NCBI GenBank assembly: GCA_937902735.1
Contig: CALELS010000013.1
Span: 134,523-198,522, forward strand
Direction: 5' to 3'
Source of the DNA: an uncultured Bacillales bacterium
Lineage (GTDB): Bacteria > Bacillota_I > Bacilli_A > RFN20 > CAG-826
Length of the DNA stretch: 64,000 bases
The notes below the pieces were generated by a model, which worked only from the letters and a program-made list of their open reading frames with translations, had not been told where the DNA came from and did not search any database. Positions 1,528 to 40,294 of this stretch are shown here, one piece after another. Within the stretch, counting starts at the first letter, position 1. Every line of letters begins with the position of its first letter. The position numbers and the translations under genes were made by a program.

Positions 1528-1570
1528 AGTATTACGGTTTGGTAATAGAGCGGCTCGAAAAATATAAAGC
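1528..1570 (+). promoter_or_regulatory. Promoter-like element TTGGTA-N18-TATAAA; copy 1 of a duplicated ~43-bp leader (second copy at 12799..12842)
   Basis: AGTATTACGGTTTGGTAATAGAGCGGCTCGAAAAATATAAAGC is near-identical to 12799..12842. It lies ~55 nt upstream of the 1624 start. Confidence 0.45.
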
Positions 1571-1623
1571 AGCTTTTATTAATTGAAAGTGAATTATTAT
1601 TCATAGTCCATTAAAATAGATAT

Positions 1624-2463
1624 ATGGCTGAAGACAGAAACCTATTTGGAATGCTTGATGACATTTCGGCTGGCCAAGCTGAGATTTTAAGTGAGATCAC
1701 TGGTGTAAAAACCCATGTTAGTGATACGGATTCTAAAATTGCTGAATTGGAGCAAGAGATTCAAAAGCTTAAAAATAAACCAGTTGCCGAACCAAGACCT
1801 GCAGTAAACGCTCCTCAAAGAAGTGAAAAAGAAATACTACAGACGTTTTTAAAGCAAGCAAAAAAGAGCTGGATGTGGTTTGGTAATAGTGCAGAATTCA
1901 AGAAGTGGAAGATACTCGCTATTATATCCTTATTAATTTTATTAATAGCAGGACTTGCGACAACCATTGTTTCATCTATTTGTTTTAAGCTTTATAGCAC
2001 GTTCACATTGTTTGAAAATGCTTGGATGATATTTGGCATCATCTACTTAGTTTATGCGGCTAAAACGCAGCGTATTTATGAAGTTAATGCGCTTGCTGCT
2101 AATTCATCGACTAAATATGAAAAAGACAATCTGGGAATGATGTTTGCTAGAAAAGAGAAGGTTGTTTTTAGAATTTTCAAATGGCTTGCCATCATTTCTG
2201 TTGTTTGCAACATCATCGCTATATGGGCGGGCATGGGCAAAACAAACCAAGTGTTCGCTACCATAATGGAAGTTCTCTTCTTAGGGGCTATTATATTTGC
2301 TTATTTCATGAATCTTAATTTGTTTGCTCAATATTCAATCATTTATGTCGAAGGACACAACTTAACCACGAAAGAAAGAGTAGTGCTTGTCCTTCCACCA
2401 GGAGCAAAGAGTTTAATGCCTGAAGAAGATTTTAAAAAGAAGATGCCGTTCTTCTACGAATAG
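1624..2463 (+). CDS. Membrane protein: N-terminal coiled coil, 4 predicted TM helices, conserved acidic/KKKMPFFYE tail; paralogous to the C-terminal two-thirds of 13973..15236
   Basis: ORF-track protein with hydrophobic segments LAIISLLILLIAGLATTIV, MIFGIIYLVYAA, LAIISVVCNIIAIWAG and VLFLGAIIFAYFM. It aligns with the 427-aa ORF from RIAALEAW... through KKKMPFLYDKY. Confidence 0.7.
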   Translation: MAEDRNLFGMLDDISAGQAEILSEITGVKTHVSDTDSKIAELEQEIQKLKNKPVAEPRPAVNAPQRSEKEILQTFLKQAKKSWMWFGNSAEFKKWKILAIISLLILLIAGLATTIVSSICFKLYSTFTLFENAWMIFGIIYLVYAAKTQRIYEVNALAANSSTKYEKDNLGMMFARKEKVVFRIFKWLAIISVVCNIIAIWAGMGKTNQVFATIMEVLFLGAIIFAYFMNLNLFAQYSIIYVEGHNLTTKERVVLVLPPGAKSLMPEEDFKKKMPFFYE

Positions 2464-2472
2464 GAGTTGCAT

Positions 2473-3621
2473 ATGTATTTATCTCATTTAAGAATAAAGA
2501 ATCACCCAATTCTCAAAGATTTTGAGTTAGATTTAGTAAATCCAAAAACAGGAAAGCCGTATGCGGTTGTTGCTTTTGTTGGCGAAAATGGTTGTGGCAA
2601 GACAACTCTTTTAAACGAAATCTTTGATTATGAAAATTCCAAATATTTTGTAGATAAAGAGAAAGAGCACCCATTCTCGATCGCTCCATATTGCTCTTTG
2701 TTTTTAAGGCAAAGCAGTCTTGCTAGAAATGCCATGAAAGAAATTGGCAAATTGATTGATGGAAAAGATAGGTATGCTGTTAATAGCCAAAGCGCAGCCA
2801 TTCAAGGAATGAAAACAACCAATCCCTTAGAAGACAAACAGCAAGGACTCAAATTACTAGAAATACTTGATGATGTTGAAATATATAAGCTCTTCAAAGA
2901 AGGAGTGATTAGTGAAGTGGCTTGCGGATCTGAAATATCAAAGTTAATCGATGGTAAAGAACGCGGCTATGACATATCTAATTATTCTTCTGGACAGCAA
3001 GAGATATTACTTAAATTAAAGGACCTGAATGAATTCTATGCAAATACCGACAGTGTGCTTTTGGATGAGCCTGAAACATCACTACATCCAAGATGGCAAT
3101 TGGAAATCGTTAACTTAATTAGATTGCTCTTAACTGATATTAATGGAGACACGCCTCAAATATTCTTAGCTACTCACTCAGAAAAAGTGCTTCAGTCTTT
3201 AATTGGTAAAGAAGATGCTTTGATTGTTAGACTTTTTAAGGAAAAAGGAACCATTAAGAACGAAACTATTAGTCAAATGCAGCTCTTGCTTAGAAAACCA
3301 ACCTTTGCTGAATTAGACTATGTCATTTTCAAAATAGATTCGTATGAATACTGTAATGAATTGTTTGATCTTCTAGAGTGGAGATATGGCGTTAGTGGCG
3401 ATAGGGGCGTTGATAGGAAAATACAAAAGAGCGAATTCTATAATGATGAAAAGCACCATAAAGAGTGGCTTAATGATAAGTTTAATGAAGTTACTTGCTA
3501 CACATTGCCTGTTTATGTTCGAAATTATTTTCACCACCCAAAAGATAAGATTGAGCCCACACCTGAAGAACTGCACGAAGCAATAGAACTACTTCGTAAT
3601 GTCGTTTTAAATTTAGAGTAA
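2473..3621 (+). CDS. ABC/SMC-type P-loop ATPase (AAA_21/AAA_15-like, OLD-N-terminal-like), no nuclease domain
   Basis: Walker A GENGCGKTT, ABC-signature-like YSSGQQE, Walker B VLLDEPETSLH and H-loop LATHS. An AGGAG RBS sits 6 nt before the ATG at 2473. The track's 2467 start is TTG. It begins 10 nt after the membrane-protein stop. Confidence 0.75.
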   Translation: MYLSHLRIKNHPILKDFELDLVNPKTGKPYAVVAFVGENGCGKTTLLNEIFDYENSKYFVDKEKEHPFSIAPYCSLFLRQSSLARNAMKEIGKLIDGKDRYAVNSQSAAIQGMKTTNPLEDKQQGLKLLEILDDVEIYKLFKEGVISEVACGSEISKLIDGKERGYDISNYSSGQQEILLKLKDLNEFYANTDSVLLDEPETSLHPRWQLEIVNLIRLLLTDINGDTPQIFLATHSEKVLQSLIGKEDALIVRLFKEKGTIKNETISQMQLLLRKPTFAELDYVIFKIDSYEYCNELFDLLEWRYGVSGDRGVDRKIQKSEFYNDEKHHKEWLNDKFNEVTCYTLPVYVRNYFHHPKDKIEPTPEELHEAIELLRNVVLNLE

Positions 3622-3698
3622 AAGTGAAATAATATAGTAGACAAAGTTAATCGTCGCTTTCTTCTGTAATCTGCAGTACGAGGAGGAGGTCGCGAATA

Positions 3699-3920
3699 AT
3701 GATTAGCATTTGTCACATCTCTTCCGAAGACTTTTTGGAAGACGTCAAGATTCAGATTAAGAAACAATTCAAGAATCAAGATAACTTTGCAGAAATTATC
3801 TATCTTTCTAGAAAGCAACTTAATCGAATTCTCAATAACGCCGATGACTTAACTGTTCACTGGATTAAAGAATTCTGTGAGAAGCTTGGCTTGGACTTAA
3901 GAAACTACATCTTTGAGTAG
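3699..3920 (+). CDS. Small HTH-like protein (possible regulator)
   Basis: Strong RBS GAGGAGGAGG. LSRKQLNRILNN...LTVHWIKEFCEKLGLDL resembles a helix-turn-helix. Confidence 0.35.
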   Translation: MISICHISSEDFLEDVKIQIKKQFKNQDNFAEIIYLSRKQLNRILNNADDLTVHWIKEFCEKLGLDLRNYIFE

Positions 3921-4030
3921 ATGATAGGGACTTAGGTCCTTTTTCTTTGTCCGTTTTTTTGGGACAAAACAAAGAGTGTGTTTACTTGTGTTCTATAGTA
4001 GTGGTGTCGAAAGGCAAAGGAGAAAAACCT

Positions 4031-4312
4031 ATGGACAGAAAAACACAAGAAATATTCTTCAAAAATTCCGTTGATATGGATGTGATAGGAAAACTTGCTA
4101 GCACAATGGTTGACGGTGTTGATGAAGCAGGAAATCCAAAAAGAATCAAAATCGAAATTAGAAACACTGATGAATTTGATACAAATCTATCTATCGAAGA
4201 AGTTGTCGACAAGATAGACAAAGAGTATGCCAAAGAAGAAATGTTTAAATTAGATCTTCTCAGAGCATGGAAACAAAATAATCACTATGTGATTGTGGGA
4301 GTTAAATTATGA
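4031..4312 (+). CDS. Hypothetical protein (start moved to the internal ATG that has an AAAGGAG RBS)
   Basis: AAAGGAGAAAAACCT-ATG context; no recognisable motif. Confidence 0.4.
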   Translation: MDRKTQEIFFKNSVDMDVIGKLASTMVDGVDEAGNPKRIKIEIRNTDEFDTNLSIEEVVDKIDKEYAKEEMFKLDLLRAWKQNNHYVIVGVKL

Positions 4313-4491
4313 GCGAAAGTTTCATGCAGGTTGCTACGGTATTAGGAATTATTAACACCGTAATAAGCACAATCGCTTGTCCAATCATTGCTGGTTATAA
4401 AAATAGAAGCGTTGTTGGTTGGATATTCGGCGGATTGTTCCTTGGACTCATTGGCCTAATAATTGTTGCCTGCCTTCCACGAAAAGATTAA
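4309..4491 (+). CDS. Small (60 aa) two-TM membrane protein; paralog at 21812..21991
   Basis: ATGA overlap with the upstream stop. About 80% identical to the 59-aa ORF at 21812 (TVLGIINTVIS.IACPIIAGYKNRSV.GW.FGGLFLGLIGLIIVACLPRKD). Confidence 0.5.
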   Translation: MSESFMQVATVLGIINTVISTIACPIIAGYKNRSVVGWIFGGLFLGLIGLIIVACLPRKD

Positions 4492-4754
4492 CCACTAGAG
4501 CCGCATTGTAAATCATATTCATGCCTCCTTTCTAGAATTTACAACTCATAGTTCTTTTACACCCGGCATTCCACTCTAATAGCGGCGTTAGGGTGGGTGC
4601 CAAGCCTTAATTAACGAGATACATCATTATGATGTGATATAATATCGGTAGATTAATAATTTACTCGAAGTGATCAGACACGTTATTTGTCTCGGTAACG
4701 TATCTATCAGCCAAATGGTTATTAAATTATTAGTCACCAGAAAGGGACTCTTTT

Positions 4755-5819
4755 ATGTATAAAAAGACATTCGTGCCACTTCTAATAGCACTAGCCTCAA
4801 TTGGAGTTATTACAGGTTGCTCCAATAAGGGTGAAACTCAAGAAACAATATCTGTAACCGATATGGTCGGTACAACCATAACCATAAACAAGAACCCTAA
4901 AAAGGTAGCTTGTATCTCTAGAACAACATATGACTTGTTAGTAGCGTATGGTCTTGGAGATAAGATTGATGGAGCCTACAAAGGCACACTCAATAATAGT
5001 TGGGTGCCACTCATCTATCCTCAAAGTCAAAATCACTATGTATATGAATACAACAATAGTAGTGAGCTCTTCCTATCAAGAGGAGTAGATTTAGTGTTCG
5101 CTCCTGAAAAGTACATGGCCGATGATTTAAATGCACACGGTATCCCTGCTTTATGCGTTTCCTTATATGGAAATCCAACGTTTGACAATTACGTCACCTT
5201 CCTTTCTCAACTTGTTACTAAGATTTGGGATGGCGATGATATCAAAGCCAAAGCAGCAGCTTGGGAAAACAAAGTCACAACTGCGATTAGTGATGTTACA
5301 ACCGAATTAGTCAAGCATGATGTCTCAAAGAAAAAGATCTTCTATGTTCGTGGCGATAAAGATAAAGGTGTTTGCTATACAGATACTAAATCTTCATTCA
5401 CAGAATATGCCTATAGATCAATGGGCTTTGACTTTGTTGGTGCTTCATTAAACACAACGAACCCTTCTACTGAAGAAGTAGTAGCACAAAACCCAGACGT
5501 CTTTGTTTGCGGTGGTCAATATCAAAACAAGAACATCAATATTCTCAAGACCGAAGAGCCATACACAAATTTAGATGCAGTTAAGAATAACAAAGTCTAT
5601 AACATTCCAATTGGTTTCACTGCATTTGAGCAATTATCCGCTATGACTCCAATATTCTTCTATGACCAAGCAAATAAGATTTATCCAGAGTATTTCTCAT
5701 ATGACATCTCTTCTATGGTTAAAACAAGCGTTAAAGAGTATTTCGGGACAGATTTAACTGATACACAAGTTGGCTATATGCTAAACGGACTTAATCCACA
5801 AGGCGGCTCGTTGTACTAA
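4755..5819 (+). CDS. ABC transporter substrate-binding lipoprotein (Fe-siderophore/B12 periplasmic-binding-protein type)
   Basis: Lipobox LIALASIGVITGCSN. Position fits an operon with a FecCD permease and an ATPase. Confidence 0.75.
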   Translation: MYKKTFVPLLIALASIGVITGCSNKGETQETISVTDMVGTTITINKNPKKVACISRTTYDLLVAYGLGDKIDGAYKGTLNNSWVPLIYPQSQNHYVYEYNNSSELFLSRGVDLVFAPEKYMADDLNAHGIPALCVSLYGNPTFDNYVTFLSQLVTKIWDGDDIKAKAAAWENKVTTAISDVTTELVKHDVSKKKIFYVRGDKDKGVCYTDTKSSFTEYAYRSMGFDFVGASLNTTNPSTEEVVAQNPDVFVCGGQYQNKNINILKTEEPYTNLDAVKNNKVYNIPIGFTAFEQLSAMTPIFFYDQANKIYPEYFSYDISSMVKTSVKEYFGTDLTDTQVGYMLNGLNPQGGSLY

Positions 5820-6844
5820 TGAATGAAAAAGCATTAAAAAGAAGAACTTTAATATCATTCATCGTTTCAATAGCAGTATTTGTAGTAGTCTTCGCCCTAG
5901 CTTTGATGCTAGGAAGATACAGAATCAAGATTGATGAGTTCTTTAAAGCTGTGTTCACGGATGGCTCTGCTTTGAATACGCAAAGAAGTATTATCGTCAA
6001 TCTTCGATTCCCAAGAACCATAATGGCGGCATTTGTTGGTATTGGCTTGTCTTTGTCTGGCTTGCTTTATCAAGAAACATTTAGAAATAAGCTTGTATCA
6101 CCTGATTTATTAGGTGTAAGTACTGGCGCATCAGTTGGTGCAGCCTTAGCCATTGTTCTTGGACTATCATCTGCCTTCATTAGTGTATTTGCATTCTTAA
6201 TGGGCTTATTAACTGTGTTTGTTACAGTGATGATATCTAAGCTATTTAGAAACGGTTCATCAACCATATTGCTGTTATCAGGCATTATCGTTGGCGGTTT
6301 CATGTCTGCGATATTATCGATGATTAAGTACTTCTCGGACGATGTCACAACATTAGCCAGCATTACTTATTGGCTTATGGGTTCATTTGAGAGTGCAGAT
6401 ATGAGTAGAGACTACATCCTAATGGGAGTGGTGGTTGTCTGTGTTGTTGTTTTGCTTCTCATTTCTCATCCAATTAACTTGGTTAATCAAGGAAAGGCTG
6501 AAGCTCAAACAAAAGGCATTAACTACAACTTCTATCGTGGTTTGATCATTGTCTTATCAACAGTTCTTACTGCTATATCGGTATGTTTCTGTGGAACCAT
6601 ATCTTGGATTGGTTTGGTCATTCCACATATAGTTAGATTGCTTGCTGGAAGAGATGCGAAAAGGACCATTCCTCTATGCATAACTTTTGGCGGAACATTC
6701 ATGATTGCGGTTGATGTTTTGTCTAGATCTTTCACTGATTCAGAGATTCCTTTAAGTGCTGTGACAGGACTTTTAGGAACAGTTATATTCGTAGTTATTT
6801 TGATTATTAAAAGGAGGAAGTTAAATGAACATAAAGACATCTAA
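5819..6844 (+). CDS. FecCD-family ABC permease (iron-siderophore/cobalamin type)
   Basis: Polytopic membrane protein typical of the FecCD/BtuC family. ATGA-type overlap with the upstream gene. Confidence 0.85.
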   Translation: MNEKALKRRTLISFIVSIAVFVVVFALALMLGRYRIKIDEFFKAVFTDGSALNTQRSIIVNLRFPRTIMAAFVGIGLSLSGLLYQETFRNKLVSPDLLGVSTGASVGAALAIVLGLSSAFISVFAFLMGLLTVFVTVMISKLFRNGSSTILLLSGIIVGGFMSAILSMIKYFSDDVTTLASITYWLMGSFESADMSRDYILMGVVVVCVVVLLLISHPINLVNQGKAEAQTKGINYNFYRGLIIVLSTVLTAISVCFCGTISWIGLVIPHIVRLLAGRDAKRTIPLCITFGGTFMIAVDVLSRSFTDSEIPLSAVTGLLGTVIFVVILIIKRRKLNEHKDI

Positions 6845-7598
6845 TTTATCCTTTAAATACGATAAAAAAGCAGCAAAACCCGTATTAAATTCAATAAATC
6901 TCGAGATTAAAGAGGGAACTGTCAATGTTTTACTTGGCTTAAACGGCTGTGGCAAAACCACCCTTATTAAACTCCTTGCTGGCCTTGAAAAACCAACAGA
7001 AGGAGCCATCTATTATGATGATCAAGATTTACAAACCATACACATTAAAGAGAGAGCCAAGAAGTTCTCATATGTTCCTCAGCAAGCCAATGTAACAAGC
7101 GATGTTCCAGTTAGACAATATTTATCTTATGGAACTACAAACACGCTCGCGTTTTATGAACATCCTGGTAAAGAAGAAATGAAGTTGGTGGAAGACTCTG
7201 CAGAGAAACTTCACATCACTCATTTACTTGATAAGAATCTTGGCGAGATAAGTGGTGGTGAACTTCAAACAGTACTAATTGCGTGTTCATTAATTCAAAA
7301 CACACCAATTATGCTTTTGGATGAACCAACATCTGCTCTTGATATGAAGAACCAAAATTTAGTTTTATCCATCCTCAAAGACATTGCTAAAGAGCAAAAT
7401 AAAACAATTGTTCTTTCATCACATAATCCAAACCATGCATTGTTCTTAGATGCCAACGTTGTGCTCATACACGATGGTGTGGTGCGTGAAGAAGGAACCG
7501 CAAAAAAATTAATTAAAGTTGAAAAGCTCGTTCCAATCTATGGAGACCATGTATGCGTTTCTAAAGATTTAGGGTACGAAGAAATATCATTTAAATAG
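6825..7598 (+). CDS. ABC transporter ATP-binding protein
   Basis: Walker A GLNGCGKTT, signature LSGGELQ, Walker B LLDEPTSALD. Confidence 0.9.
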   Translation: MNIKTSNLSFKYDKKAAKPVLNSINLEIKEGTVNVLLGLNGCGKTTLIKLLAGLEKPTEGAIYYDDQDLQTIHIKERAKKFSYVPQQANVTSDVPVRQYLSYGTTNTLAFYEHPGKEEMKLVEDSAEKLHITHLLDKNLGEISGGELQTVLIACSLIQNTPIMLLDEPTSALDMKNQNLVLSILKDIAKEQNKTIVLSSHNPNHALFLDANVVLIHDGVVREEGTAKKLIKVEKLVPIYGDHVCVSKDLGYEEISFK

Positions 7599-7696
7599 AT
7601 ATAGCTACCTTTTTTGGGACAAAACAGTGCTTACTCCATTTTTCGTTATACATTGTTGACGTCGATAAGAACTCGACAGAAAGTGAGATAACCGAA

Positions 7697-8344
7697 ATGG
7701 AAAATCAAAAATTTAAGAAAAACGCCAACAACATCATGTGGGTAGAGTACTGGATTAGAAAGGCCCACCCTTCATTTGAAGAATATGAACTGTATGCTGA
7801 GAGATACGATGATTGCAGATGGATCTGCGAAATCGAATTACCTCTAATCAACAAAACAGTTAAATCTATTTCCGAAAAAGAAGTAAACGCAATGCTAAGT
7901 GCTTCAGAAAAAGCAGCAAAACTCATCAATGAATATATGAAAGAGCATCCAGAGCTCGTAATCAGAAATTCATTTAAAGGAAAACGCTGGGAAATCGTAA
8001 GCGATGAAAACGGCAAATTCCTCTCGATGGGTATGAGCAGTGCCTGGAGACGCGAACAAGGCAAGCAAATGGAAAAGATGACAAGAGATTCACTTGAAGC
8101 CGTTAAGAAAGCAATCAAAAGACTAGCCAAGATTAATGGAACCAGTAAGAATTTATTTATCCAAGTCCTAGATCAATCGCTCTTCGATGAAGACAAATCA
8201 ATCCAAGACATTATGTATGAAGTAAATAACAAAATTGAAAACGATTATCATATGAGCAACATGACAGTCTGTTACGACAAAGATGGAGATAGTGTAATCG
8301 TAGTGGGTTACACCTTCCCGTCTAAGAAAGGAGGTCTCCAATAA
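7697..8344 (+). CDS. Hypothetical protein
   Basis: Long ORF with a GAAAGTGAG RBS-like context; no recognisable motif. Confidence 0.5.
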   Translation: MENQKFKKNANNIMWVEYWIRKAHPSFEEYELYAERYDDCRWICEIELPLINKTVKSISEKEVNAMLSASEKAAKLINEYMKEHPELVIRNSFKGKRWEIVSDENGKFLSMGMSSAWRREQGKQMEKMTRDSLEAVKKAIKRLAKINGTSKNLFIQVLDQSLFDEDKSIQDIMYEVNNKIENDYHMSNMTVCYDKDGDSVIVVGYTFPSKKGGLQ

Positions 8345-9077
8345 TGAAATACTTATTCTTCGATATTGAATGTTCAAATTGTTTCAATGGTGTTGGTAAG
8401 ATGTGCGAGTTTGGATACGTCCTTACTGACGAAAACTTCAACATCATGAAACATGGCGATATACCAATGTCTCCTGGTAAAGGCAGCGACTGCAGGTTCT
8501 ATCTTAAGGGTAGGAAGCATGAAAAAGACCTAGAGCTAGCATATGAGTATGACTATTACTTCAGTCAACCAGAATTCCCATCATTCTATAACCAAATAAA
8601 AAGGATGATGGAAGATCCTGACACTGCATGCTTTGCCTACTCAATGGATAACGATATTCCTCATCTACATCAATGAATGTATGTGTTACCGCATACCATA
8701 AGTCATTCGAGTGTGGTCGTCTAAACGAGTTAGCAGATCTATTTCCAGATTTAAGTGACCATTTAAGGAATATAAGTGACCATGTTGTAGATCTAGAAGA
8801 GCCTTTTTCAAAAGGGATGTTCTATGATGTTGCGATGGGTGGCAGAAGTTCTATTAAAGTGGTGTTACCTGCCTTATATCCAAACGACCCAGAATTGGAT
8901 TACCATTCTCTTCCTCTTGTGCATAATGGTGGAGAGGCCATGGACATTTATCCGAAAATGTTAGAAGCTAATCCTGGTGAAAAAGAAAAGATTAGGCATG
9001 GTCTACTTGTCTACTGTTGCTTAGATACTTTAGCAATGGTAAAGGTGCTTAAAAAGCTCAGAGAATATATCAAATAA
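8344..9077 (+). CDS. DnaQ-like (DEDD) 3'-5' exonuclease-like protein encoded as two overlapping ORFs (8344..8676 and 8673..9077)
   Basis: LFFDIECSN...FGYV matches Exo I (DxE). HGLLVYCCLDTLAM in the second ORF resembles the Exo III region. The ORFs are in different frames and joined at cAATGAatg (ATGA overlap). This is either a frameshift-split gene or a coupled gene pair. Confidence 0.45.
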
Positions 9078-9184
9078 TAAAAACATTAAGGGCAGACGGA
9101 AAACGGCTCTACGGGGCTAAAAAGTCTGTTTTTATTATACTATTTATAGTATAATAATAGTGTAGAAAGAAAGAGGTAAGAAAT

Positions 9185-9709
9185 ATGTACGACTACACAA
9201 TTAGAATTAAAAAAGATAATAGAACCATCTGCGCCATTGGAGCAAATCACTTACAATACGACAATGTTATTTGGTGGCAATTGGCTAAATTAGTAAATAT
9301 AGTATCAGGAGGATTTGCTACAGTAGAACAATTAGCAAAAATGATTGAAGATGGAACTGAGTATTTTCACCAAGCGGCTGAATATGCTGATAGTGATCCA
9401 GTTCTTGATTTAGATAGTGAAACAATTGATATGCCATGGTTTCCGGTTTACAAACAAGAAGAGGTTTGCCCAGAAGAATGCTGTATTAGTTTAAAGATCA
9501 AAGACGGTAAATATTATTCTGTGTATGAAGATGGCGAAGAATACTTGATGAACAATGTTGAATTTGATGACGCTGATTTATTAAAGAAAAGAACCGTTTC
9601 CTTAAAAGAATTTAAGAAAGTATGCGACTTTGTTGATAGAATAATAATGAACGACGAAACAGATTTTGTTTTAAACAAAGAATTAGTTATTAGATTTAAT
9701 AATGCTTAA
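9185..9709 (+). CDS. Hypothetical protein
   Basis: ORF with an AAGAGGTAAG RBS; no motif recognised. Confidence 0.5.
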   Translation: MYDYTIRIKKDNRTICAIGANHLQYDNVIWWQLAKLVNIVSGGFATVEQLAKMIEDGTEYFHQAAEYADSDPVLDLDSETIDMPWFPVYKQEEVCPEECCISLKIKDGKYYSVYEDGEEYLMNNVEFDDADLLKKRTVSLKEFKKVCDFVDRIIMNDETDFVLNKELVIRFNNA

Positions 9710-9722
9710 GTAGGAGAATCTT

Positions 9723-10235
9723 ATGGTTATCAAAGCTATCTATATGGATATCACAAAAATAGGTGAATTAGCTGATGTTATTGTCAACGCTGCAAACGAA
9801 TCACTGCTAGGCGGTGGTGGTGTTGACGGTGCAATCCATAGAGCAGCCGGCCCAGAATTGTTAGAGGAATGTCGAACTCTTCATGGGTGTCATCCTGGAG
9901 AGGCCAAAGCTACTAAAGCGTATAGATTAAAGAACAAGTACATTATTCATACAGTTGGACCGCGTTATTATTCTGACCCGCATCCAGCAGAAACATTAGC
10001 AAATTGTTATTTAAATTGCTTAAAACTAGCAGATGAACTTGGAATGGAATCTATAGCATTTCCATCAATATCAACAGGCATATTTGGATATCCGGTTGAA
10101 GAGGCTGCTGAAATATGTGCTAAGGTAGTATGTGGCTACAAGCCAAAGCACTTGAAATATGGATACATGTGCATTCTTAATGACGAACACAACGAGGCTG
10201 TTTACAACGGAGCATTCCAAAAATTCAATCATTAG
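9723..10235 (+). CDS. Macro-domain protein (ADP-ribose/O-acetyl-ADP-ribose processing, MacroD/YmdB-like)
   Basis: [28 protein letters not shown] and [13 protein letters not shown] are canonical macro-domain motifs. Confidence 0.85.
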
Positions 10236-10273
10236 GATTGTGATATAATTTTGCAAAAGGAGTAATAGGTGTT

Positions 10274-11584
10274 ATGTTTAATCAGGAATCTATCAATTTG
10301 TTCGTTAAAAAATTCAATATCTTTTTTAGAACAAAGATGGAGATAGTTATTAAAAGAGAACAAAAGAACTATGATTTGCTCAACACTTTTTTAACCATAT
10401 TCTCTCCAGATAAAATTCCGTCATTAGCTCTTGAAGATTATTGTTTTGCAAAAGGCAATAAGAACACTATGTGCTATTGGATTGATAACACGCTTAATGA
10501 TTTGGGAGACATACACATTAATGGCCAATGTGGCTTTCAGAAATTCGGTATTCAAAATATAAATGGTGAATACGTATTCAAGAGAAGCAATCAAACAAAT
10601 TGTAAATACGGTGATAATTCTGATGACGTTTATAAAACAATTAACTCAGAGCTAATAAAAGTCATTGCTGCAGCTATTGCGTTTAATGCCGACGAAATTG
10701 ACAAATCAATGCTTCCCCAAGTTTTTAAATCGAAACTTTCATATTTATATAACAAAGATCATTGGATGCCTATTTATGTCAATACCGATGTGGATAAGCT
10801 ATTAGATGTTTTTGAAATTCCATATTATCATTCTGAATCTTTGACAAAAAAGCGAGTCAAACTATATTACTTCTACTTAGAAGTGAAAAAGCAAATACCA
10901 TTTATTACTACATGGGAATTTATGAACTTTGTTTATTCTGTTGATGGATATAGAGATTATCTAAGGAATGGTAAACCTGTTAATCATTCAAGCGCAAACG
11001 CCGAAATACGAATGAGTGGCCCAGATGACTCTACGATCAATTCTCAGGACAGCGAAGAAGACGAATTAGATTTGAGCGATGAGGATTTGATTGAATTTGT
11101 AGGCACTTATACTAAAAACGGAACAATTGATAACGGAGTTACTGCTTCCAGAAAGAAAAGAAACACACCAAGAAAGACGGACTACCAAAGAAAGCAGAAG
11201 AATAATGAGCGAAAAGGAACGATTGGAGAAAAGCTTATTTACAATGATGAAGTAAGTAAAATTGCTAATCTGAATCTTAATTTAGAAGTTATTCATAATG
11301 CTGCAAACGATGATACTCTTGGTTATGACATCACTTCTTATGATGAGAAAGGTAAAAAAATCTTTATTGAAGTTAAAACAACTACGAGTGGCAGAATAGA
11401 TGGCTTTCATCTCTCTGTTAAGGAAGTTGAGAAAGCTATTGAATTAGGAGAAAGATTCAAATTGTACCGTGTTTATAATTTAAATGTAAAAAACAAAACA
11501 TACGACGTTGAAATCTTTAATGGTGTAGAACTATTTGAAACCTTCAAACTCAAAGAAACAAGCTTCATTGCTTTAATTAATTAG
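10274..11584 (+). CDS. Two-domain protein: unknown N-terminal domain + C-terminal DUF3883-type PD-(D/E)xK nuclease
   Basis: C-terminal LGYDITSYDEKGKKIFIEVKTTTSGRIDGFHLSVKEVEKA matches the DUF3883 pattern (GyDI...IEVKtt...f.lS.nE). Confidence 0.6.
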   Translation: MFNQESINLFVKKFNIFFRTKMEIVIKREQKNYDLLNTFLTIFSPDKIPSLALEDYCFAKGNKNTMCYWIDNTLNDLGDIHINGQCGFQKFGIQNINGEYVFKRSNQTNCKYGDNSDDVYKTINSELIKVIAAAIAFNADEIDKSMLPQVFKSKLSYLYNKDHWMPIYVNTDVDKLLDVFEIPYYHSESLTKKRVKLYYFYLEVKKQIPFITTWEFMNFVYSVDGYRDYLRNGKPVNHSSANAEIRMSGPDDSTINSQDSEEDELDLSDEDLIEFVGTYTKNGTIDNGVTASRKKRNTPRKTDYQRKQKNNERKGTIGEKLIYNDEVSKIANLNLNLEVIHNAANDDTLGYDITSYDEKGKKIFIEVKTTTSGRIDGFHLSVKEVEKAIELGERFKLYRVYNLNVKNKTYDVEIFNGVELFETFKLKETSFIALIN

Positions 11585-11586
11585 AT

Positions 11587-12555
11587 ATGTCTAAAAAATC
11601 AATTTACATAGTTGAAAACGAGATTCGTCCTGGCGATTATGTTTTCTTTTATAGTGGAGAAGTTCTTACCGTAACTAAATACGATAAAGACAGACATAGA
11701 ATCACATTTGAAGATGGCTCCGTTAGAGATCTCTATGTCATATATGATAACTATGTTTCAGATATACGTCATCCGGCTGAAAAAGTTACAAAAACAAAGT
11801 CAGATAAGAAATGCAGTTCAAAATCAAAAACTACGAAAGCCAAACCCGCAAAGAGAGAATCCAAGACGTTCTCCCTTTATGCGTTAGCAAGCGGGAAACC
11901 TGGAAAGAAATTCACAATCAAAGCATTTCTGCAAATAACTAAGAACGCTAAGAAAAAGCCAGGTGGAGCCAATACTGAAAAGACAATTAAGCTCGATGAC
12001 GGTTATGTTTATGAAGCTGATTCGCAGCAAGAAATATCGACGCTTAAAAAGTTGATTTCGCATGATGCTTTTAAAAGATTGAGGGGACAATGCATTAATA
12101 TCCCGTATAGATATGGTGGTAAGACCCATAATTACTATCCCGATTTTATCATTCTCACTCAGACCAACAAGATCATTATTATGGAAGTAAAAGAAATTGC
12201 CCAAATGAACACAAAGCAGAATATCAAAAAATATGATGCTCTTAAGAGATATTGTGAGAAGAATGGTTATTTATATATCATGTGCGATAAATCATTTAAA
12301 CCATATGAAAAACTTAGTAAGTTCACTGCAAGTAGTCGAGTGGAAACTGCAATCGATGATGCTCTTGACGAAAAAGGATGTTTTGATTATTCAGATTTTA
12401 AAGAATTGATAAAAGGCAAAGACCATAAAAAGATAAAAGGCATCAGAAACTCGATCGGTATTTATATCAAATCACACAAAAAAGTCAAAATGATTGGCGA
12501 TTTAACATTCAATAGTTCAGATTTCCGTATTATTAGAATCAAGAAGAAGAAATAG
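11587..12555 (+). CDS. PD-(D/E)xK-fold nuclease-like protein with small N-terminal beta-rich domain and K-rich linker
   Basis: YYPDFIILTQTNKIIIMEVKE (PD...EVK). Begins 2 nt after the upstream stop. Confidence 0.5.
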   Translation: MSKKSIYIVENEIRPGDYVFFYSGEVLTVTKYDKDRHRITFEDGSVRDLYVIYDNYVSDIRHPAEKVTKTKSDKKCSSKSKTTKAKPAKRESKTFSLYALASGKPGKKFTIKAFLQITKNAKKKPGGANTEKTIKLDDGYVYEADSQQEISTLKKLISHDAFKRLRGQCINIPYRYGGKTHNYYPDFIILTQTNKIIIMEVKEIAQMNTKQNIKKYDALKRYCEKNGYLYIMCDKSFKPYEKLSKFTASSRVETAIDDALDEKGCFDYSDFKELIKGKDHKKIKGIRNSIGIYIKSHKKVKMIGDLTFNSSDFRIIRIKKKK

Positions 12556-12684
12556 GGGCAAAACGCTCCTTTTTTTACATTCTTATATGCAAATACGTAT
12601 TATGAACCCTGGTCAAACCCATGAGTGGTCAACTACTACACTGGGATTTTAAAGTAATATTATATATAATATTAAAATTGCATA

Positions 12685-12760
12685 AAAACATATTCCCTGA
12701 TACACCGGTTGCCTATGATATATAGTGCGTAATTAAACCCCATGTCAGGGAATATGTTTT
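12685..12760. repeat. Perfect 16-bp inverted repeat AAAACATATTCCCTGA / TCAGGGAATATGTTTT flanking a 44-bp spacer (MITE-like or large operator); third arm copy at 37329..37342
   Basis: Read directly from the sequence at 12685-12700 and 12745-12760; TCAGGGAATATGTT recurs at 37329. Confidence 0.6.
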
Positions 12761-12798
12761 ATTGTCCAATTATGCCTTCGTTATATTTTTTACGCCAT

Positions 12799-12842
12799 AG
12801 TATTACGATTTGGTAATATTACGGTTTTGAAAATATAAAATC
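12799..12842 (+). promoter_or_regulatory. Second copy of duplicated promoter-like leader (TTGGTA-N18-TATAAA)
   Basis: AGTATTACGATTTGGTAATATTACGGTTTTGAAAATATAAAATCC aligns with 1528..1570 in the same register. Confidence 0.45.
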
Positions 12843-12904
12843 CGTGCATGTGTGCGTTAATTATTTGTTTATGGCACATATCATACGATAAAATAAATAA
12901 AGAT

Positions 12905-13981
12905 ATGGATTTCGCTAAAAGGATGGAAATAGCCAAAAGGCAAGAAGAGAGGCATAGAGCTCTTTTAGAAAAAAGAGAACGCTTTACCGATGCCGAAGAA
13001 AAATATAGACAGTTCTTTTTAGATATAGATAAAAATGAAGCTCATCTTTTTGGCGATTTGCCAGAAAGAAAGACTGAATCAACTCGTCGCATTATAGAGC
13101 TTCTTCTTAAGAATCCTGAAGAATATAAAAGAAAAACAGCTGAGATTCATGCCAAATACCCCAAACTAACATCTAGTGAATTCACAGAAGCATTGAAAAC
13201 AATGTGGAAGTATCAATACGAATACTATAAAGAGCTGGTTGATTATTTAAATATGACCAACGAAGATTATGAGACTCTTTTCTCACCAGAATATAAAAAG
13301 AAAACATTCGAAATGGCCAAAAATGGGCTTTTCCTGTTTTATGAAGAAACTCCTGACATGGAAGAGTTCTTGACTGATGACACAGACAAAAATATAGAAT
13401 TTGTTTTGAATTATATCTCAATGGATGATTTTGGTCCGTTGAGACAGATGCTCATGTATTTGTATACAGAAGAAGATCCTTCAGACTTTTTAAGAACTGT
13501 TAAAACTAGAGATTTTAAAGAAGCGATTGCTTGCTTGATAAATGGTTGCTATGGATCTTGCGCTAGAACAATGCTTGCCTTGATTGAAAACGAACACACT
13601 AATGCCTCAAATATCAATAGAGATTTCTTTGAAGATAAAATTACTAAAGGCGCGGATAGAGCTATTGAAATATCCAAACAACTTGGTGAGATTCATGTTT
13701 CTTATTTCGCGGAATGTTGGAAATTAATGAATGATTATTATCAAGAAATAACGGCAAATAGCGCAAAAAAATCAACTAGATATATAAACAGAAATGAAGT
13801 TGTGCATGGTGTTTATTGGGATGCTATTTTGCCTGACAAAAAGGCGTGTACAGAACTAGTTTTGTTTTACGTCAGTTTTAAAGCGATGTCGTTTTTGCTC
13901 CAAGAAGTTTATGATATGAGAGCAAGAGTTAATGAGGAATTTGATTTAGTGATTGCAAAGGAGTTATCAGAACGTGCTTGA
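12905..13981 (+). CDS. Alpha-helical protein with a candidate HEPN-type Rx4H motif (RNEVVHG)
   Basis: RYINRNEVVHGVYWD lies near the C-terminus. The track start at 12848 sits almost at the predicted TSS, so the ATG at 12905 is preferred. The HEPN assignment rests on the motif only. Confidence 0.4.
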   Translation: MDFAKRMEIAKRQEERHRALLEKRERFTDAEEKYRQFFLDIDKNEAHLFGDLPERKTESTRRIIELLLKNPEEYKRKTAEIHAKYPKLTSSEFTEALKTMWKYQYEYYKELVDYLNMTNEDYETLFSPEYKKKTFEMAKNGLFLFYEETPDMEEFLTDDTDKNIEFVLNYISMDDFGPLRQMLMYLYTEEDPSDFLRTVKTRDFKEAIACLINGCYGSCARTMLALIENEHTNASNINRDFFEDKITKGADRAIEISKQLGEIHVSYFAECWKLMNDYYQEITANSAKKSTRYINRNEVVHGVYWDAILPDKKACTELVLFYVSFKAMSFLLQEVYDMRARVNEEFDLVIAKELSERA

Positions 13982-15236
13982 TTTCTTGAATTATTTAGGG
14001 AATAAGGTAGTTGGGCGTTATAAAACCGTTGAGTCAAACATTAGAAACCGCTCCAATTCTTTTTACGACTCCTTTCTTGATCTTTTAGAAGATACTGTTA
14101 AAGCCATTTTAATGAATGAAGATATTGGCTATGACGGCAGAACTTGTGGAGAGATATTAAGAGAACCAGATGTTAATAATTTCTTTAAACATAAAGCTAA
14201 TATAGATAAAGATCTTTATTCGAAAGTCGGAGACTATATCAAAAAGATAAACGAACACAAACACCATAATGAAAAATATGTCAATGTCGATACTGTCATT
14301 AACTATATGTCTACATATTATGGGTTTGTAACTCCTTATCTTATTTACAAAGGCATAGAAATAAAACCATTTAATGAGGCCTATTTTAGAGGCATTTATG
14401 GCGTTACTTTAGAAAGAAGCAAAGAACTTGACAATGTTTCTCAAAAAGTGGATGAGTTTGTTTCAACTACTAATGTAAAAATTGATGAGCATTCAACTAG
14501 AATTGCTGCACTTGAGGCTTGGTCACAAGAATTTAACAGAAGGCAAATGCAACCTCAACCACAGTCGAGTGTTAAACCGCCAGAGAAAAAGAGTGAAAAA
14601 GAGGTAATGCATTGGTTCTTTAGAACCTCAAAAAAGAGCTGGCGTTGGTTCGGAAATCAATTCGAGTTGAATAAAAGCAAATCACTAGCTATTTTTTCTC
14701 ATGTCTTGCTCTTGGTTCTTGGACTGTTAACAACTATTGTGACATCTATTTCTACAAAGATTTATACGACATTCACCCTATTCGAAAACATTTGGCTTAT
14801 CTTTGGAATCCTCTTGTTAGTTTATGCGGTTAAAGCAAAACTTACATACGAGAGCGGAGACTTAGCTAGAAATACCAATTATAAGTATAAACAAGACCAA
14901 TTTGGGTTATGGAATCCGGGAAAAGAGAAAGCTGTATTCAAAGTGTTTAGGTGGTTAGGAATAATAGCGGTAGTAGGGAACATTATCTATATTTGGGTTC
15001 AATCCAGTAATATAAGCTGGCTTGCAACGATATTAGAGGTGCTGTTCTTAGGCTCAATCATCTTCTCGTTCTTCATGAACGTTTCACTATTTGCGCAATA
15101 TACCATTATATATTTAGAAGGAAAAAATATGAGCGGAACCGAATATGTAAAACTTGTTTGGGACCCAATGATTAAACAATTCCTTGTGGAAGAAGAATAT
15201 AAGAAGAAAATGCCGTTCTTATATGACAAATATTAA
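13973..15236 (+). CDS. Membrane protein: unique ~180-aa N-terminal cytoplasmic domain + coiled coil + 4-TM domain paralogous to ORF 1624..2463
   Basis: An AAAGGAG RBS lies 9 nt before the GTG at 13973, overlapping the upstream stop (the track uses TTG at 13953). C-terminal homology includes SWRWFGNQFE, TFTLFENIW, VLFLGSIIFSFFMN and EEEYKKKMPFLYDKY. Confidence 0.65.
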
Positions 15237-15333: not shown

Positions 15334-15552
15334 ATGAAGTTTATGATGCAAGATTCTATGTCGGCTCGCGCTGGCAAAAATCTTAAACGCATTATCAAGG
15401 AAAAAGGCTTCACTCAGGAACAATTTGCTGAGCAAATGTATGTAGATCCAACAACTGTTCGCAGATGGTTGGCACACGGGATCAAGGATATTGATACCAT
15501 CAGTACAATAGCCGAAATCTTCGATATAGACGTTATGGACATCCTTAAATAG
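15334..15552 (+). CDS. XRE-family HTH transcriptional regulator
   Basis: GFTQEQFAEQMYVDPTTVRRWLAHG is a classic HTH_3 pattern. Confidence 0.75.
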   Translation: MKFMMQDSMSARAGKNLKRIIKEKGFTQEQFAEQMYVDPTTVRRWLAHGIKDIDTISTIAEIFDIDVMDILK

Positions 15553-15569
15553 GGTGTCTTTTTGTTTTT

Positions 15570-15588: not shown

Positions 15589-15655
15589 ATTTGTTGCGCT
15601 ATTTTGAGTGTTGACAATAATTCAGAATATTGGTGTCGAAAGGAAACAAACACTA

Positions 15656-16071
15656 TGACACCAAAAAACAAATACTTCAAAGTTACAGCCAAATGCGGAC
15701 ACGTTGGTAAAGGCAATTATGTCCCAGTGGCATTCGCTGTTAAAGCAGAAAGCAGAAGTGCTGCATCTCAAAAAGTTATGACTTATCACAGAGTCAAAAA
15801 ACAATTAAACGATGCAATCATCTCCTGCGAAGAAATTGATAGAGATTCTTATAAGGAACTCATGCAGGCGAACAAAGAATTCAAATATCTCCAATGCAAA
15901 TGCAATAGACAACAAAGAGAGATTGAAGGATTCGATTCACTCATCTGCAAAAACGAATACAGAGAAGAAAGACGCAAAGTCGAACCAGCCAAATCTATGA
16001 AATATAGAAGAGCAATCTATGAGTTGGGCGGCAGAAGAAGCTCTCTCTCACTCTGCTACGGGGAGGACTAA
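15656..16071 (+). CDS. Small Cys/His-containing protein (AKCGHVG...NY family), first gene of the nrd operon; truncated paralog at 40007..40294
   Basis: AAAGGAAAC RBS. ~85% DNA identity to 40160..40294 (reverse strand) over the first ~130 nt. 4-nt gap to nrdG. Confidence 0.55.
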
Positions 16072-21811: not shown

Positions 21812-21991
21812 ATGTTCGATGTTCCAACTTGGGCTACTGTATTAGGAATAATCAATACAGTGATTAGCATGATAGCTTGTCCTATCATTGCAGGGTATAA
21901 GAACAGGAGCGTAGCCGGATGGTTTTTCGGAGGGTTATTCCTTGGACTTATTGGACTAATTATCGTTGCTTGTTTGCCTAGAAAAGACTAA
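21812..21991 (+). CDS. Small (59 aa) two-TM membrane protein, paralog of 4309..4491 (below ORF-track size cutoff)
   Basis: An AGGAGGAAGCATAT RBS precedes the ATG at 21812; stop TAA at 21989-21991. Sequence MFDVPTWATVLGIINTVISMIACPIIAGYKNRSVAGWFFGGLFLGLIGLIIVACLPRKD. Confidence 0.5.
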   Translation: MFDVPTWATVLGIINTVISMIACPIIAGYKNRSVAGWFFGGLFLGLIGLIIVACLPRKD

Positions 21992-22041: not shown

Positions 22042-23781
22042 CTATAAAACAACAACTTTATACGCTAATGTTTGCGTCTTGAATGGGTCCTTACATTTGA
22101 TGTATCCATCTAGGATTGATGGTAGTGCAGCAATGGCTTGTCTGCTCTCTCTAAATTTATCTAGAGTGATTTTATTTGATGCATCGATTGTCACTACAAT
22201 TTCATGTTTATCAACCGCGATAATACGGTAGAAGAAGCAGTCCATCATTTCTTTGGTAAGCATCTTATAAGTTATTTCTTTGCCTTTTAAGATATCAATC
22301 ATCTTGGATAAGCGGACTTCAGCTTCTTTTCTTAAGACGGTCTTATCTTGGACCCTTTGTATTTCTGCGACTACGTTTTGATAATCATTAACTAAATCTT
22401 GGTAACGTGTATCCAATGTCTTTCTCATCTCAACCGTATTAGCGGCTGCTCTTTCTTTTAACAAGAAGTCGATATCTCCATTAAGTTGGCTCTTCTTTTC
22501 GAGTAGCCTATTGAGTTCTTCGTCAACATCTGTTTCTTCTGATAACGTAGATGTTAAAGCTTTAGATAGTTTATTAAAGGCATTAGTGTTACCCATATAA
22601 AGTTTATTAATGATATCAGCACATGCTCTTAGAATCATGTTTTCACTAAGTGGTTTTGAGTGGCATCGATGGGTTTTAGTTGGATAGATATAAGTATTGC
22701 ATTGGAACATAATCTTTGGCTGTCCATCAGGATAACCTTTATACCATGTTCTTCTTTTATAGGATGCTCCACAGCCATAGCAGATAATCATGCCGCTTAA
22801 TGGATGTTTGGTGTTGTATTTACTTAAATCTCTATTCTTCCCAACTGCTTTAGCGGATTGAGACTTAAGTCTAGCTTGCACTCTATTCCATTGTTCTATA
22901 GAAATAATGGGTTCATGTGCTCCCTCGACTTTATACTTTTGTCTTTGACCTCTATTTTCTCTACGCTTATGGGTAAGATAATCAACGGTATAAGTCTTTT
23001 GGAGTAATAAGTCACCCATGTATTTTTCGTTTCTAAGCATTCCTAGAACAGTGGTGTTATTCCAATTGGTTCTACCAGTCATGGTTTTAATGCCACGCTT
23101 TTTAAGTTCTCTACATATGGTGTCTGGTCCCTTGCCTGAATCATATAAATCAAATATCAAACGAACCACTTTAGCTTGCTCTTCATTGATGACTAATTGC
23201 TTTTTATCTTCGCTTAGGTCATAGCCCATGAAGTTTGATGGTGCTACAAATGGCACACCTTCACGCATTTTCTTTTGTACGGTCCATGTAACGTTCTCTG
23301 AAATGTGTCTACTCTCTTCTTGAGCCATAGAGCTAATTATTGAAAACATGAATTCGTTTTTAGCATCAAAGGTGCTTAGTCTTTCATTATCAAAATAAAC
23401 TTCGACACCTATTTCTTTCAGTTCACGTATTGTCTGGATTGTTAAGACAGTGTTTCTTGCAAATCTTGATATCGACTTAACTAGGATTAAATCAATCTTG
23501 CCAGCTTTGGCATCTTTAATCATTTGATTGAAACCGTTTCTACCTTTCGCTGACGTGCCGGATATACCTTCATCTGCGTAAACCTTTACTAATTGATAAT
23601 CAGGATTCTCAAGGATCCTTTTGGTCCACTCTTCAATTTGGTTGTTAAAAGAAGTGGATTGCTCTTCGCTGTCAGTACTAACACGACAGTACGCCGCAAC
23701 GCGTTTTACTCGCGACTCAGATAGATCTTTATCAAATATGCTATCCACCTTTGTAGGAGCAATAATTTGTACATTATTCAT
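22042..23781 (-). CDS. Large serine recombinase (resolvase catalytic domain + recombinase domain + Zn ribbon + coiled coil)
   Basis: AAYCRVSTDSEEQ catalytic Ser motif; CYGCG...C zinc ribbon; ~579 aa. Confidence 0.9.
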   Translation of the reverse strand: MNNVQIIAPTKVDSIFDKDLSESRVKRVAAYCRVSTDSEEQSTSFNNQIEEWTKRILENPDYQLVKVYADEGISGTSAKGRNGFNQMIKDAKAGKIDLILVKSISRFARNTVLTIQTIRELKEIGVEVYFDNERLSTFDAKNEFMFSIISSMAQEESRHISENVTWTVQKKMREGVPFVAPSNFMGYDLSEDKKQLVINEEQAKVVRLIFDLYDSGKGPDTICRELKKRGIKTMTGRTNWNNTTVLGMLRNEKYMGDLLLQKTYTVDYLTHKRRENRGQRQKYKVEGAHEPIISIEQWNRVQARLKSQSAKAVGKNRDLSKYNTKHPLSGMIICYGCGASYKRRTWYKGYPDGQPKIMFQCNTYIYPTKTHRCHSKPLSENMILRACADIINKLYMGNTNAFNKLSKALTSTLSEETDVDEELNRLLEKKSQLNGDIDFLLKERAAANTVEMRKTLDTRYQDLVNDYQNVVAEIQRVQDKTVLRKEAEVRLSKMIDILKGKEITYKMLTKEMMDCFFYRIIAVDKHEIVVTIDASNKITLDKFRESRQAIAALPSILDGYIKCKDPFKTQTLAYKVVVL

Positions 23782-40098: not shown

Positions 40099-40294
40099 GG
40101 CCATTAAGGTATTCGTCATAATCAATTTCAGCAACGCTTCTTATCGCGTCTTTATGATGATGTTTAACTCTAGGGGAATTTCTCACCTTAAGAGCGGCTT
40201 CTTTACCATCTTCAGCACATACGTAGAACATCTTAATAATGTAATTGTTTCTACCAACGTGTCCGCATTTAGCTTCAACCTCGTAATACCTCAT
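40007..40294 (-). CDS. Truncated paralog of the AKCGHVG small protein (15656..16071); its 3' end is read antisense through the AbiEii remnant
   Basis: GAGGAGG RBS. The first ~62 aa are homologous to ORF 15656, then homology stops near 40090. Confidence 0.45.
   Translation of the reverse strand: MRYYEVEAKCGHVGRNNYIIKMFYVCAEDGKEAALKVRNSPRVKHHHKDAIRSVAEIDYDEYLNGLNKTSNDSYFLVHNSTEKEEYAPLLLFQNK

Follow-up and report, generated by a model that had tools for sequence, protein, structure and literature searches.

The 64-kb stretch of DNA analysed here (hereafter the window), from an uncultured Bacillales bacterium, encodes two related membrane proteins that share a coiled coil followed by four transmembrane (TM) helices, an arrangement that we call cc-4TM. 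The region holds two parallel three-gene transcription units, each made up of a leader, two genes of which one encodes the cc-4TM protein, a gene for a small helix-turn-helix (HTH) protein and a terminator-like hairpin (Table 1). In unit 1, a short-form cc-4TM protein is encoded upstream of an ABC-type ATPase; in unit 2, a 358-aa protein is encoded upstream of a long form that carries an additional N-terminal domain (the N-domain). The operon layout is backed by the spacing of the gene pairs (10 nt in unit 1 and an 8-nt overlap in unit 2), and terminator-like hairpins are present only 3′ of each HTH gene, none being found inside unit 1 or unit 2. Homologues of the 358-aa protein suggest that its gene begins at ATG 12905, where they themselves start, and homologue comparison likewise makes GTG 13974 (420 aa), rather than TTG 13953 (427 aa), the most likely start of the long-form membrane gene and ATG 2473 (382 aa) the most likely start of the ATPase gene. 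An HTH gene also lies 3′ of the ATPase gene in all six related loci with enough downstream sequence. Although the two HTH proteins of the window both belong to the broad XRE family, they share no pairwise similarity, which argues against each unit encoding its own repressor for a common operator.

Table 1. Features of the two units, with window positions
Feature	Position	Strand	Description
Leader copy 1	1528..1568	+	TATTAC-N6-GTAATA inverted repeat overlapping TTGGTA, then AAAATATAAA; 3′ end 55 nt before ATG 1624
Short-form membrane protein, 279 aa	1624..2463	+	N-terminal coiled coil, 4 TM helices, predicted cytoplasmic beta-sheet cap, acidic/aromatic tail EEDFKKKMPFFYE
ABC-type ATPase, 382 aa, AAA_15/AAA_21	2473..3621	+	Start 10 nt after the membrane gene
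Small XRE-type HTH protein, 73 aa	3699..3920	+	Closing gene of unit 1
Terminator-like hairpin and T run ending unit 1	3926..3951	+	Hairpin itself 3926-3941
Leader copy 2	12799..12839	+	33/41 identical to copy 1; 3′ end 65 nt before ATG 12905
358-aa all-alpha protein, clade-specific upstream partner	12905..13981	+	Invariant CLxNxCxxSCxRTMxALxENEHxNAS and RxINRNExxHG (Rx4H)
Long-form membrane protein, 420 aa from GTG 13974	13974..15236	+	N-domain, coiled coil, then 4-TM domain and tail; 8-nt overlap with the preceding gene
Small XRE-type HTH protein, 72 aa	15334..15552	+	HTH_3 1.1e-7; closing gene of unit 2
Terminator-like hairpin and T run ending unit 2	15537..15569	+	Hairpin itself 15537-15559

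The original prediction, made from the sequence of the window, held that the product of ORF 1624 and the C-terminal part of ORF 13973 are paralogs with a coiled coil and four TM helices, and both points were borne out. In a BLASTP comparison, the 279-aa protein aligned with the C-terminal 270 residues of the 427-aa ORF at 49% identity over 273 residues (E 1e-80), with the three quoted motifs SW(M/R)WFGN, TFTLFEN(A/I)W and EE(D/E)(F/Y)KKKMPF(F/L)Y all inside the alignment. Hydropathy places four TM segments after a helical/coiled-coil stretch, and the AlphaFold model agrees. At the level of DNA, the tail motif is 84% identical between the paralogs (2422-2459 versus 15189-15226) and the TM3-TM4 core 71% identical (1951-2081 versus 14721-14851).

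The AlphaFold model of the long form, built on 82 sequences, reaches a pLDDT above 90 for residues ~205-420, which make up the membrane domain. A short amphipathic helix and a strand carrying the KKSWRWFG motif lead into TM1 and TM2; these are followed by three short strands in the TM2-TM3 loop, then by TM3, TM4, three C-terminal strands and a short EEEYKKK helix. With TM1 preceded by a cytosolic N-domain or coiled coil, three elements should face the cytoplasm, namely the N-terminal strand, the TM2-TM3 loop and the C-terminus; in the model they would jointly form a small beta-sheet cap under the four-helix bundle. Among the invariant residues of the domain are a Glu-Asn pair where TM2 begins, an Asn within TM3 and the Glu that opens TM4. 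Charged residues of TM2 and TM4 (E64 and E149) are invariant, and conserved glutamates lie near the outer end of the bundle. Judged by its conservation, the C-terminal tail is the most constrained part of the membrane protein.

In line with the expectation that the membrane domain belongs to no named family and to no well-known housekeeping family, it matched no entry of Pfam, NCBIfam, PADLOC or PHROGs, no transporter family and no specific solved fold. The Pfam search of 99 cc-4TM members returned no permease family. Two candidate relatives from the same search were rejected: nine weak DUF2207_C matches, which reflect mere TM helices and no consistent family, and a single SLATT_5 match (E 0.016, 15 bits versus a cut-off of 29.5). 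With PADLOC, the 279-aa short form gave no significant match at E<=0.1, the only entry being Csx18 at E 0.035, and the 427-aa ORF gave none at E<=0.1 against a set that includes KwaA, ZorA/B and other TM proteins; a related long form (P0192) and a short form of the split type described below gave none at E<=0.01. Literature searches brought up no description of the family. A word-indexed search retrieved 132 short-form clusters, all of them unnamed and from gut or rumen metagenomes; the few named short-form sequences are metagenome-assembled genomes (MAGs) that carry the labels Bacilli, Mollicutes or Candidatus Enteromonas. When 1.84 billion representatives were searched with a profile, 173 cc-4TM clusters were found, which fall into two length classes of 250-290 aa and 400-500 aa.

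To see which proteins accompany the membrane domain, we classified 50 metagenomic loci encoding cc-4TM. The short form is immediately followed by the ATPase in 11 of the 50, while four loci encode the fused long form, two of these with the 358-aa gene upstream. In a further 24, and in two more cut by the contig end, a separate gene of ~270 aa encoding an N-domain plus coiled coil lies directly 5′ of a short-form gene (the split type); the other nine were too short for classification. No membrane gene with visible neighbours in this census lacks both the ATPase and the N-domain, and the same two architectures were recovered from the 173 clusters. The idea that one membrane module is wired to differing partners was therefore upheld, with a change of partner: what recurs in unit 2 is the N-domain of ~150 aa, either fused or as a separate upstream gene, and not the supposedly HEPN-like 358-aa protein.

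Every long form that we inspected begins with the same N-domain as the 420-aa protein of the window, followed by the coiled coil and the 4-TM domain. The N-domain is all-alpha and is marked by the motifs RYxTLExNIKxxSNSFYDSYLDLLE, TCG and DYxxKxNxHKHxxEK; nine polar residues (R15, T18, S27, S29, D32, E39, N93, K96 and H97) and one leucine are invariant. It lacks the arginine of an Rx4H-type motif, having KxNxHKH instead. Its AlphaFold model is unreliable (pLDDT ~40), with only five homologues in the alignment used. RNase L was considered as a relative and rejected, the PDB profile match having an E of 0.72 and NxHKH not being aligned on the catalytic motif. Profile-profile comparison (hhalign) of the N-domain with the 358-aa protein and with the C-terminal domain of the ATPase was negative in both cases.

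In ~20 split loci from the human gut, the start of the N-domain gene is overlapped by a DUF4238 gene, an arrangement of translational coupling (Pfam 1.6e-16; 61-64 bits versus a cut-off of 27). No DUF4238 protein is encoded in the 64-kb window. The N-domain protein can also pair with an unrelated 427-aa protein with TPR and TM regions, as in locus L070. A small nucleotidyltransferase-like protein (~210 aa) and a protein of 186-228 aa recur beside N-domain genes (L070 5808-9086, L085 1017-2190 and L116 6638-7928 on the minus strand), the latter protein giving a weak Abi_2 match in L116.

The partner in unit 1 had been predicted to be an ABC-type ATPase, and so it is (Pfam AAA_15 3.4e-18, AAA_21 2.4e-13). 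Walker A (GENGCGKTT), the signature (SSGQQ), Walker B (LLDEPE) and the H-loop (ATHS) are all intact. PADLOC scores it best against PtuA (1.3e-24), with AriA at 6.5e-20, and the closest solved protein in a PDB search is AriA of the PARIS system (E 1.2e-4). Its similarity to an ABC transporter ends at the P-loop (ABC_tran, residues 33-53), and the adjacent 4-TM protein belongs to no permease family, so that on sequence grounds we assign the ATPase to the AriA/PtuA-like defence-associated type rather than to transporter ABC subunits. The protein ends in a domain of ~115 aa with an invariant LPxY(I/V)R(N/D)(Y/F)FHH motif that includes R350, H354 and H355.

Comparison with known ATPase systems shows both the kinship and the differences. 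In two-gene PARIS- and Septu-type ATPase systems, the non-ATPase partner is the effector. Unit 1 resembles PARIS in pairing an AAA_15/AAA_21 ABC ATPase with a second gene and in its proposed logic, with an ATPase that would restrain and then release an effector. It differs in that the partner is a coiled-coil 4-TM membrane protein encoded upstream, not the AriB DUF4435/TOPRIM nuclease, and in that the ATPase has its own C-terminal domain with an RxxFHH motif. Septu is approached through the PtuA scores, but the NCBIfam PtuA model gives only 31 bits versus a cut-off of 500, and no PtuB-type HNH partner is encoded in either unit. Searches for DUF4435 in the ATPase and its neighbours, in the window and in related loci, and for HNH or PtuB among the proteins of either unit were all negative; since these defining nuclease partners are absent, the ATPase falls in neither PARIS nor Septu.

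The Rx4-6H motif is a hallmark of HEPN RNases. The 358-aa protein, for which a HEPN-like character had been proposed, does carry an invariant motif of this kind: it is all-alpha (AlphaFold pLDDT 79), its ENEH and RNEVVH motifs are invariant, and across 15 homologues R296, N297, E298 and H301 vary little or not at all. Profiles, folds and profile-profile comparison gave the proposal no support. No family or fold was matched, including the HEPN Pfam families and solved HEPN structures; hhalign was negative for the C-terminal region against the ATPase C-terminal domain and for the protein against DUF4238 (probability 0.2%); and a match to Shedu SduA was weak (E 0.042). The likeness to HEPN abortive-infection proteins thus consists of R-N-x-x-x-H in this protein and R-(N/D)-x-F-H-H in the ATPase C-terminal domain, both in all-alpha regions, but the two regions have no detectable homology with each other. 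We regard a HEPN-like status as a possible lead at the level of the motif only. The protein is restricted to a small clade of 21 clusters, where it accompanies the fusion at 65-94% identity and occurs without a membrane gene at 45-57%; it is a clade-specific extra and not the recurrent partner.

The surroundings of the two units are rich in defence-type genes. The stretch between them (9723-12555) is defence-island-like, with a macro-domain protein (9723-10235), a PD-T4-1-like/NOV_C protein (10274-11584; PADLOC 2.7e-29) and, directly upstream of unit 2, a TnsA-like endonuclease-domain protein (11587-12555). In related loci, NERD, STAND ATPases, DUF4143 ATPases, AbiEii, an SRA-NUDIX-NOV_C protein, Gabija-like genes and Wadjet lie beside one or the other unit. 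At least five distinct gene neighbourhoods harbour unit 1. Alternative cassettes fill the slot upstream of nrdG: DUF4238 with N-domain and cc-4TM genes, the 358-aa protein with the fusion, nucleotidyltransferase-like genes with the fusion, or the N-domain protein with the unrelated TPR-TM protein.

Two further comparisons bear on how such units might work. Small multi-pass membrane proteins with a cytoplasmic partner and modular exchange are also found in lambda RexAB, Kiwa (KwaA), the TM effectors of CBASS and Pycsar, and SLATT; RexB and KwaA likewise have four TM helices. A single DUF4238 protein protected E. coli against T7 (Rousset et al. 2022, PMC9122126). The related human-gut loci resemble that defence in having DUF4238 coupled to the N-domain and cc-4TM genes, but the described system is a single gene, and in the window the corresponding position is held by the unrelated 358-aa protein.

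Based on these observations, we give roughly an even chance to the reading that both units are modular anti-phage defence systems of the abortive-infection type, with a cc-4TM membrane effector under an AriA-like ATPase or an N-domain. We infer the defence role, the effector role of cc-4TM and the sensor role of its partner from the modular pattern of partners and the defence-rich surroundings, and it is the context that points to abortive infection. The cc-4TM protein would oligomerise via its coiled coil and then damage or depolarise the membrane, and its cytoplasmic partner would restrain it and sense infection. In unit 1 the restraining partner would be the AriA/PtuA-like ABC ATPase; in unit 2 this role would fall to the fused N-domain, and the 358-aa protein would be an accessory specific to the lineage. 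The leader would be a recently spread, lineage-specific promoter/operator that puts both units under one control. A more specific proposal, which we hold tentatively and at somewhat less than even chances, is that cc-4TM is the pore-forming or depolarising effector of an undescribed anti-phage family of uncultured gut Bacilli with at least three control modules (the AriA-like ABC ATPase, the fused N-domain, and the separate N-domain gene with DUF4238), the N-domain versions sitting in a long-lived nrdDG slot. The protein families are undescribed, and the logic of the system is familiar.

The roles within such a defence system could also be reversed, although we think this unlikely. Here cc-4TM, anchored in the membrane, would serve as sensor or scaffold in the manner of Kiwa's KwaA or Zorya's ZorAB and detect envelope perturbation or the entry of phage DNA, and the effectors would be the partners, namely the ATPase C-terminal domain, the 358-aa protein and DUF4238. 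Both window units do have a partner with an invariant Rx4H-type motif (R350/H354/H355 and RNEVVH), the protection that DUF4238 gives alone in E. coli would let it be the effector of the three-gene loci, and the structured beta-sheet cap and conserved tail of the membrane domain could dock partners. However, the three domains that would bear the motif have no detectable homology to one another or to any HEPN family or structure, the N-domain version being without the motif arginine, and the distant proteins in which N-domain and cc-4TM are fused stand alone with no such partner.

A number of findings weigh against defence as such. None of cc-4TM, the N-domain and the 358-aa protein has homology to a validated defence protein, and none has a PADLOC match. 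Neither plasmid records nor IMG/VR viral contigs contain the membrane domain. In 23 of the 24 loci whose sequence extends far enough, the N-domain version directly precedes an HTH-KCGHVG-nrdG-nrdD series. The genomes that keep this synteny have NrdD proteins only 63-71% identical, and the membrane and N-domains (33-46% identity) have diverged about as fast as the HTH and KCGHVG genes, a pattern that looks like long vertical residence and not like a mobile defence gene. Of the distant fused forms, two stand as solo genes, surrounded by genes for amino-acid metabolism and tRNA modification. Unit 1 often lies beside an iron/B12-type importer (Peripla_BP_2/FecCD/ABC); in the window, a complete separate importer is encoded downstream of it at 4755-7598. 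As for the leader, a sigma-70 consensus scan (16-18 nt spacing) did not call TTGGTA-N18-TATAAA at either site, because TATAAA lacks the conserved final T of the -10 hexamer.

Most of these findings would suit a membrane function peculiar to this lineage of gut Bacilli with small genomes. It might be envelope-stress signalling, or a regulator tied to the adjacent nucleotide-metabolism cluster or to the importer, and the defence-like neighbours would then be coincidental. We nevertheless consider such a function improbable. The ATPase is of the AAA_15/AAA_21 defence-associated type, and its membrane protein, with four TM helices, matches no permease family; both partners and architectures are exchanged between loci, and the slot upstream of nrdG holds alternative cassettes. 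Furthermore, unit 1 also occurs away from the importer, and the family is small, its members coming only from unnamed metagenome sequences and from a small number of MAGs of gut Bacilli/Mollicutes. The original prediction of an abortive-infection/effector system is partly supported: it has the modular partner pattern and the defence-rich context on its side, and some of the context speaks against a mobile defence gene.

The leader was proposed to be a duplicated promoter of ~43 nt upstream of 1624 and 12905. The duplication stands, with a shared stretch of 41 nt. The 20-mer AGTATTACGRTTTGGTAATA has exactly two occurrences in the window, at 1528 and 12799, both on the plus strand, against a chance expectation of 0.02 matches and with two copies in none of 100 shuffles; relaxing the core to 3 mismatches gave no extra copy in the 64 kb. 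The two leaders are direct copies 11.3 kb apart, each with the inverted repeat TATTAC-N6-GTAATA and terminating in AAAATATAAA, and the DNA flanking them on both sides is unrelated between the two copies. Their identity (33 of 41 positions, or 80%; core 19/20) is far above that of the coding paralogs (49%), and therefore the leader is not a relic of the duplication that produced the paralogs; it either spread later or is under selection.

Across 185,579 species genomes, the exact 18-mer core was found at 57 loci, which is about chance level, and the full leader only in two Bacilli MAGs (loci L036 and L042), with one copy each, so the element is not a ubiquitous promoter. In L042, the upstream flank of leader copy 1 and the leader are followed by a KCGHVG gene, a homologue of window ORF 15604; in L036, the flank of copy 2 and the leader are followed by an unrelated 321-aa gene. 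A 39-nt leader pattern had no match in JGI metagenome contigs or IMG/VR, and an Rfam scan of the window found nothing. The leader is missing from orthologous loci whose proteins are 54-82% identical. When all related loci were scanned with mismatches allowed, only a degraded copy was recovered (L074/L075); in L074, a 94% orthologue of unit 2, 8 of its 32 specified positions are changed, and the changes affect both hexamers as well as one arm of the inverted repeat. The four instances in the window, L042 and L036 all point the same way, toward a start codon that follows 55-170 nt later, as would suit a portable promoter/operator. The leader may act as a promoter of the two window units, which do share the element as predicted, but it is lineage-specific, and a common promoter is not a trait that these systems conserve. 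A long hairpin (AAAACATATTCCCTGA ... TCAGGGAATATGTTTT) that lies at ~12677-12757, upstream of leader copy 2, is conserved and may be a terminator or a repeat element; it recurs upstream of the corresponding genes in L072, L036, L042 and L074.

Other features of the neighbourhood concern the nrdDG cluster and possible mobile DNA. The KCGHVG protein (138-165 aa; window 15604-16071) matches no family, and in related loci its gene is always flanked by the HTH gene on one side and nrdG on the other; a second copy in the window, 50% similar and at ~40010-40327 on the minus strand, was detected via a phage record. That record, PV036423.1 (a metagenome-derived GenBank entry, Ca. Heliusvirales), encodes an N-domain protein and the TPR-TM protein, and also has KCGHVG, nrdG, nrdD (67% identical to that of the window), a kinase and an LRR protein beside its serine recombinases. 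A serine recombinase directly follows the nrdDG cluster in the window too. The nrdDG/N-domain segment of the record may be the host flank of a prophage at the same site, or it may be truly phage-borne. Two large serine recombinases and a D5-type primase-helicase are encoded at 22042-23781 (minus strand), 25026-27224 (plus) and 54344-56080 (plus); they come right after the nrdDG/kinase/methylase cluster, which suggests an integrated element, and are also the genes common to the window and PV036423.1.

Downstream of unit 1, the gene for a 60-aa two-TM protein (4333-4491) has a 77%-identical 159-nt copy at 21833-21991, right after an LRR/DNA-methylase gene. The gene order in locus L001 is methylase, RNase_T, membrane gene, ATPase, HTH, 114 aa and 59 aa, and the window looks rearranged relative to it. 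L001 has an intact RNase_T/DUF2779-like gene (309 aa), whose counterpart in the window is split over the adjacent ORFs 8344-8676 and 8673-9077 and is probably a pseudogene with a frameshift. Three proteins of related loci are unrelated to those of the window: one of 340 aa encoded upstream of unit 1 in L063, the 321-aa protein of L036 and a 137-aa protein of L067. It is very unlikely that the leader is primarily a recombination or cassette-boundary site whose direct copies mediate rearrangement of the intervening genes: the different genes that follow the same flank and leader in L042 and L036, the changed order relative to L001, the second two-TM gene, the serine recombinases nearby and the inverted repeat in the core would all suit such a site, but the shared orientation of the four instances and their position upstream of a start codon fit a promoter/operator, only two copies exist in 64 kb, and no recombinase gene adjoins either of them.

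If the defence reading is confirmed, the two units would bring two additions to the known bacterial immune modules, a membrane-effector domain and the sensor-like N-domain, and would give a first functional handle on DUF4238-linked operons. Their hosts are uncultured gut Bacilli with small genomes, whose phage defences are essentially unstudied. The ATPase-paired, fused and split architectures form a natural comparison set for asking which part senses and which part kills. Should the true function instead be a non-defence one tied to nrdDG, the system would serve as a caution against inferring defence from domain shuffling and context alone.

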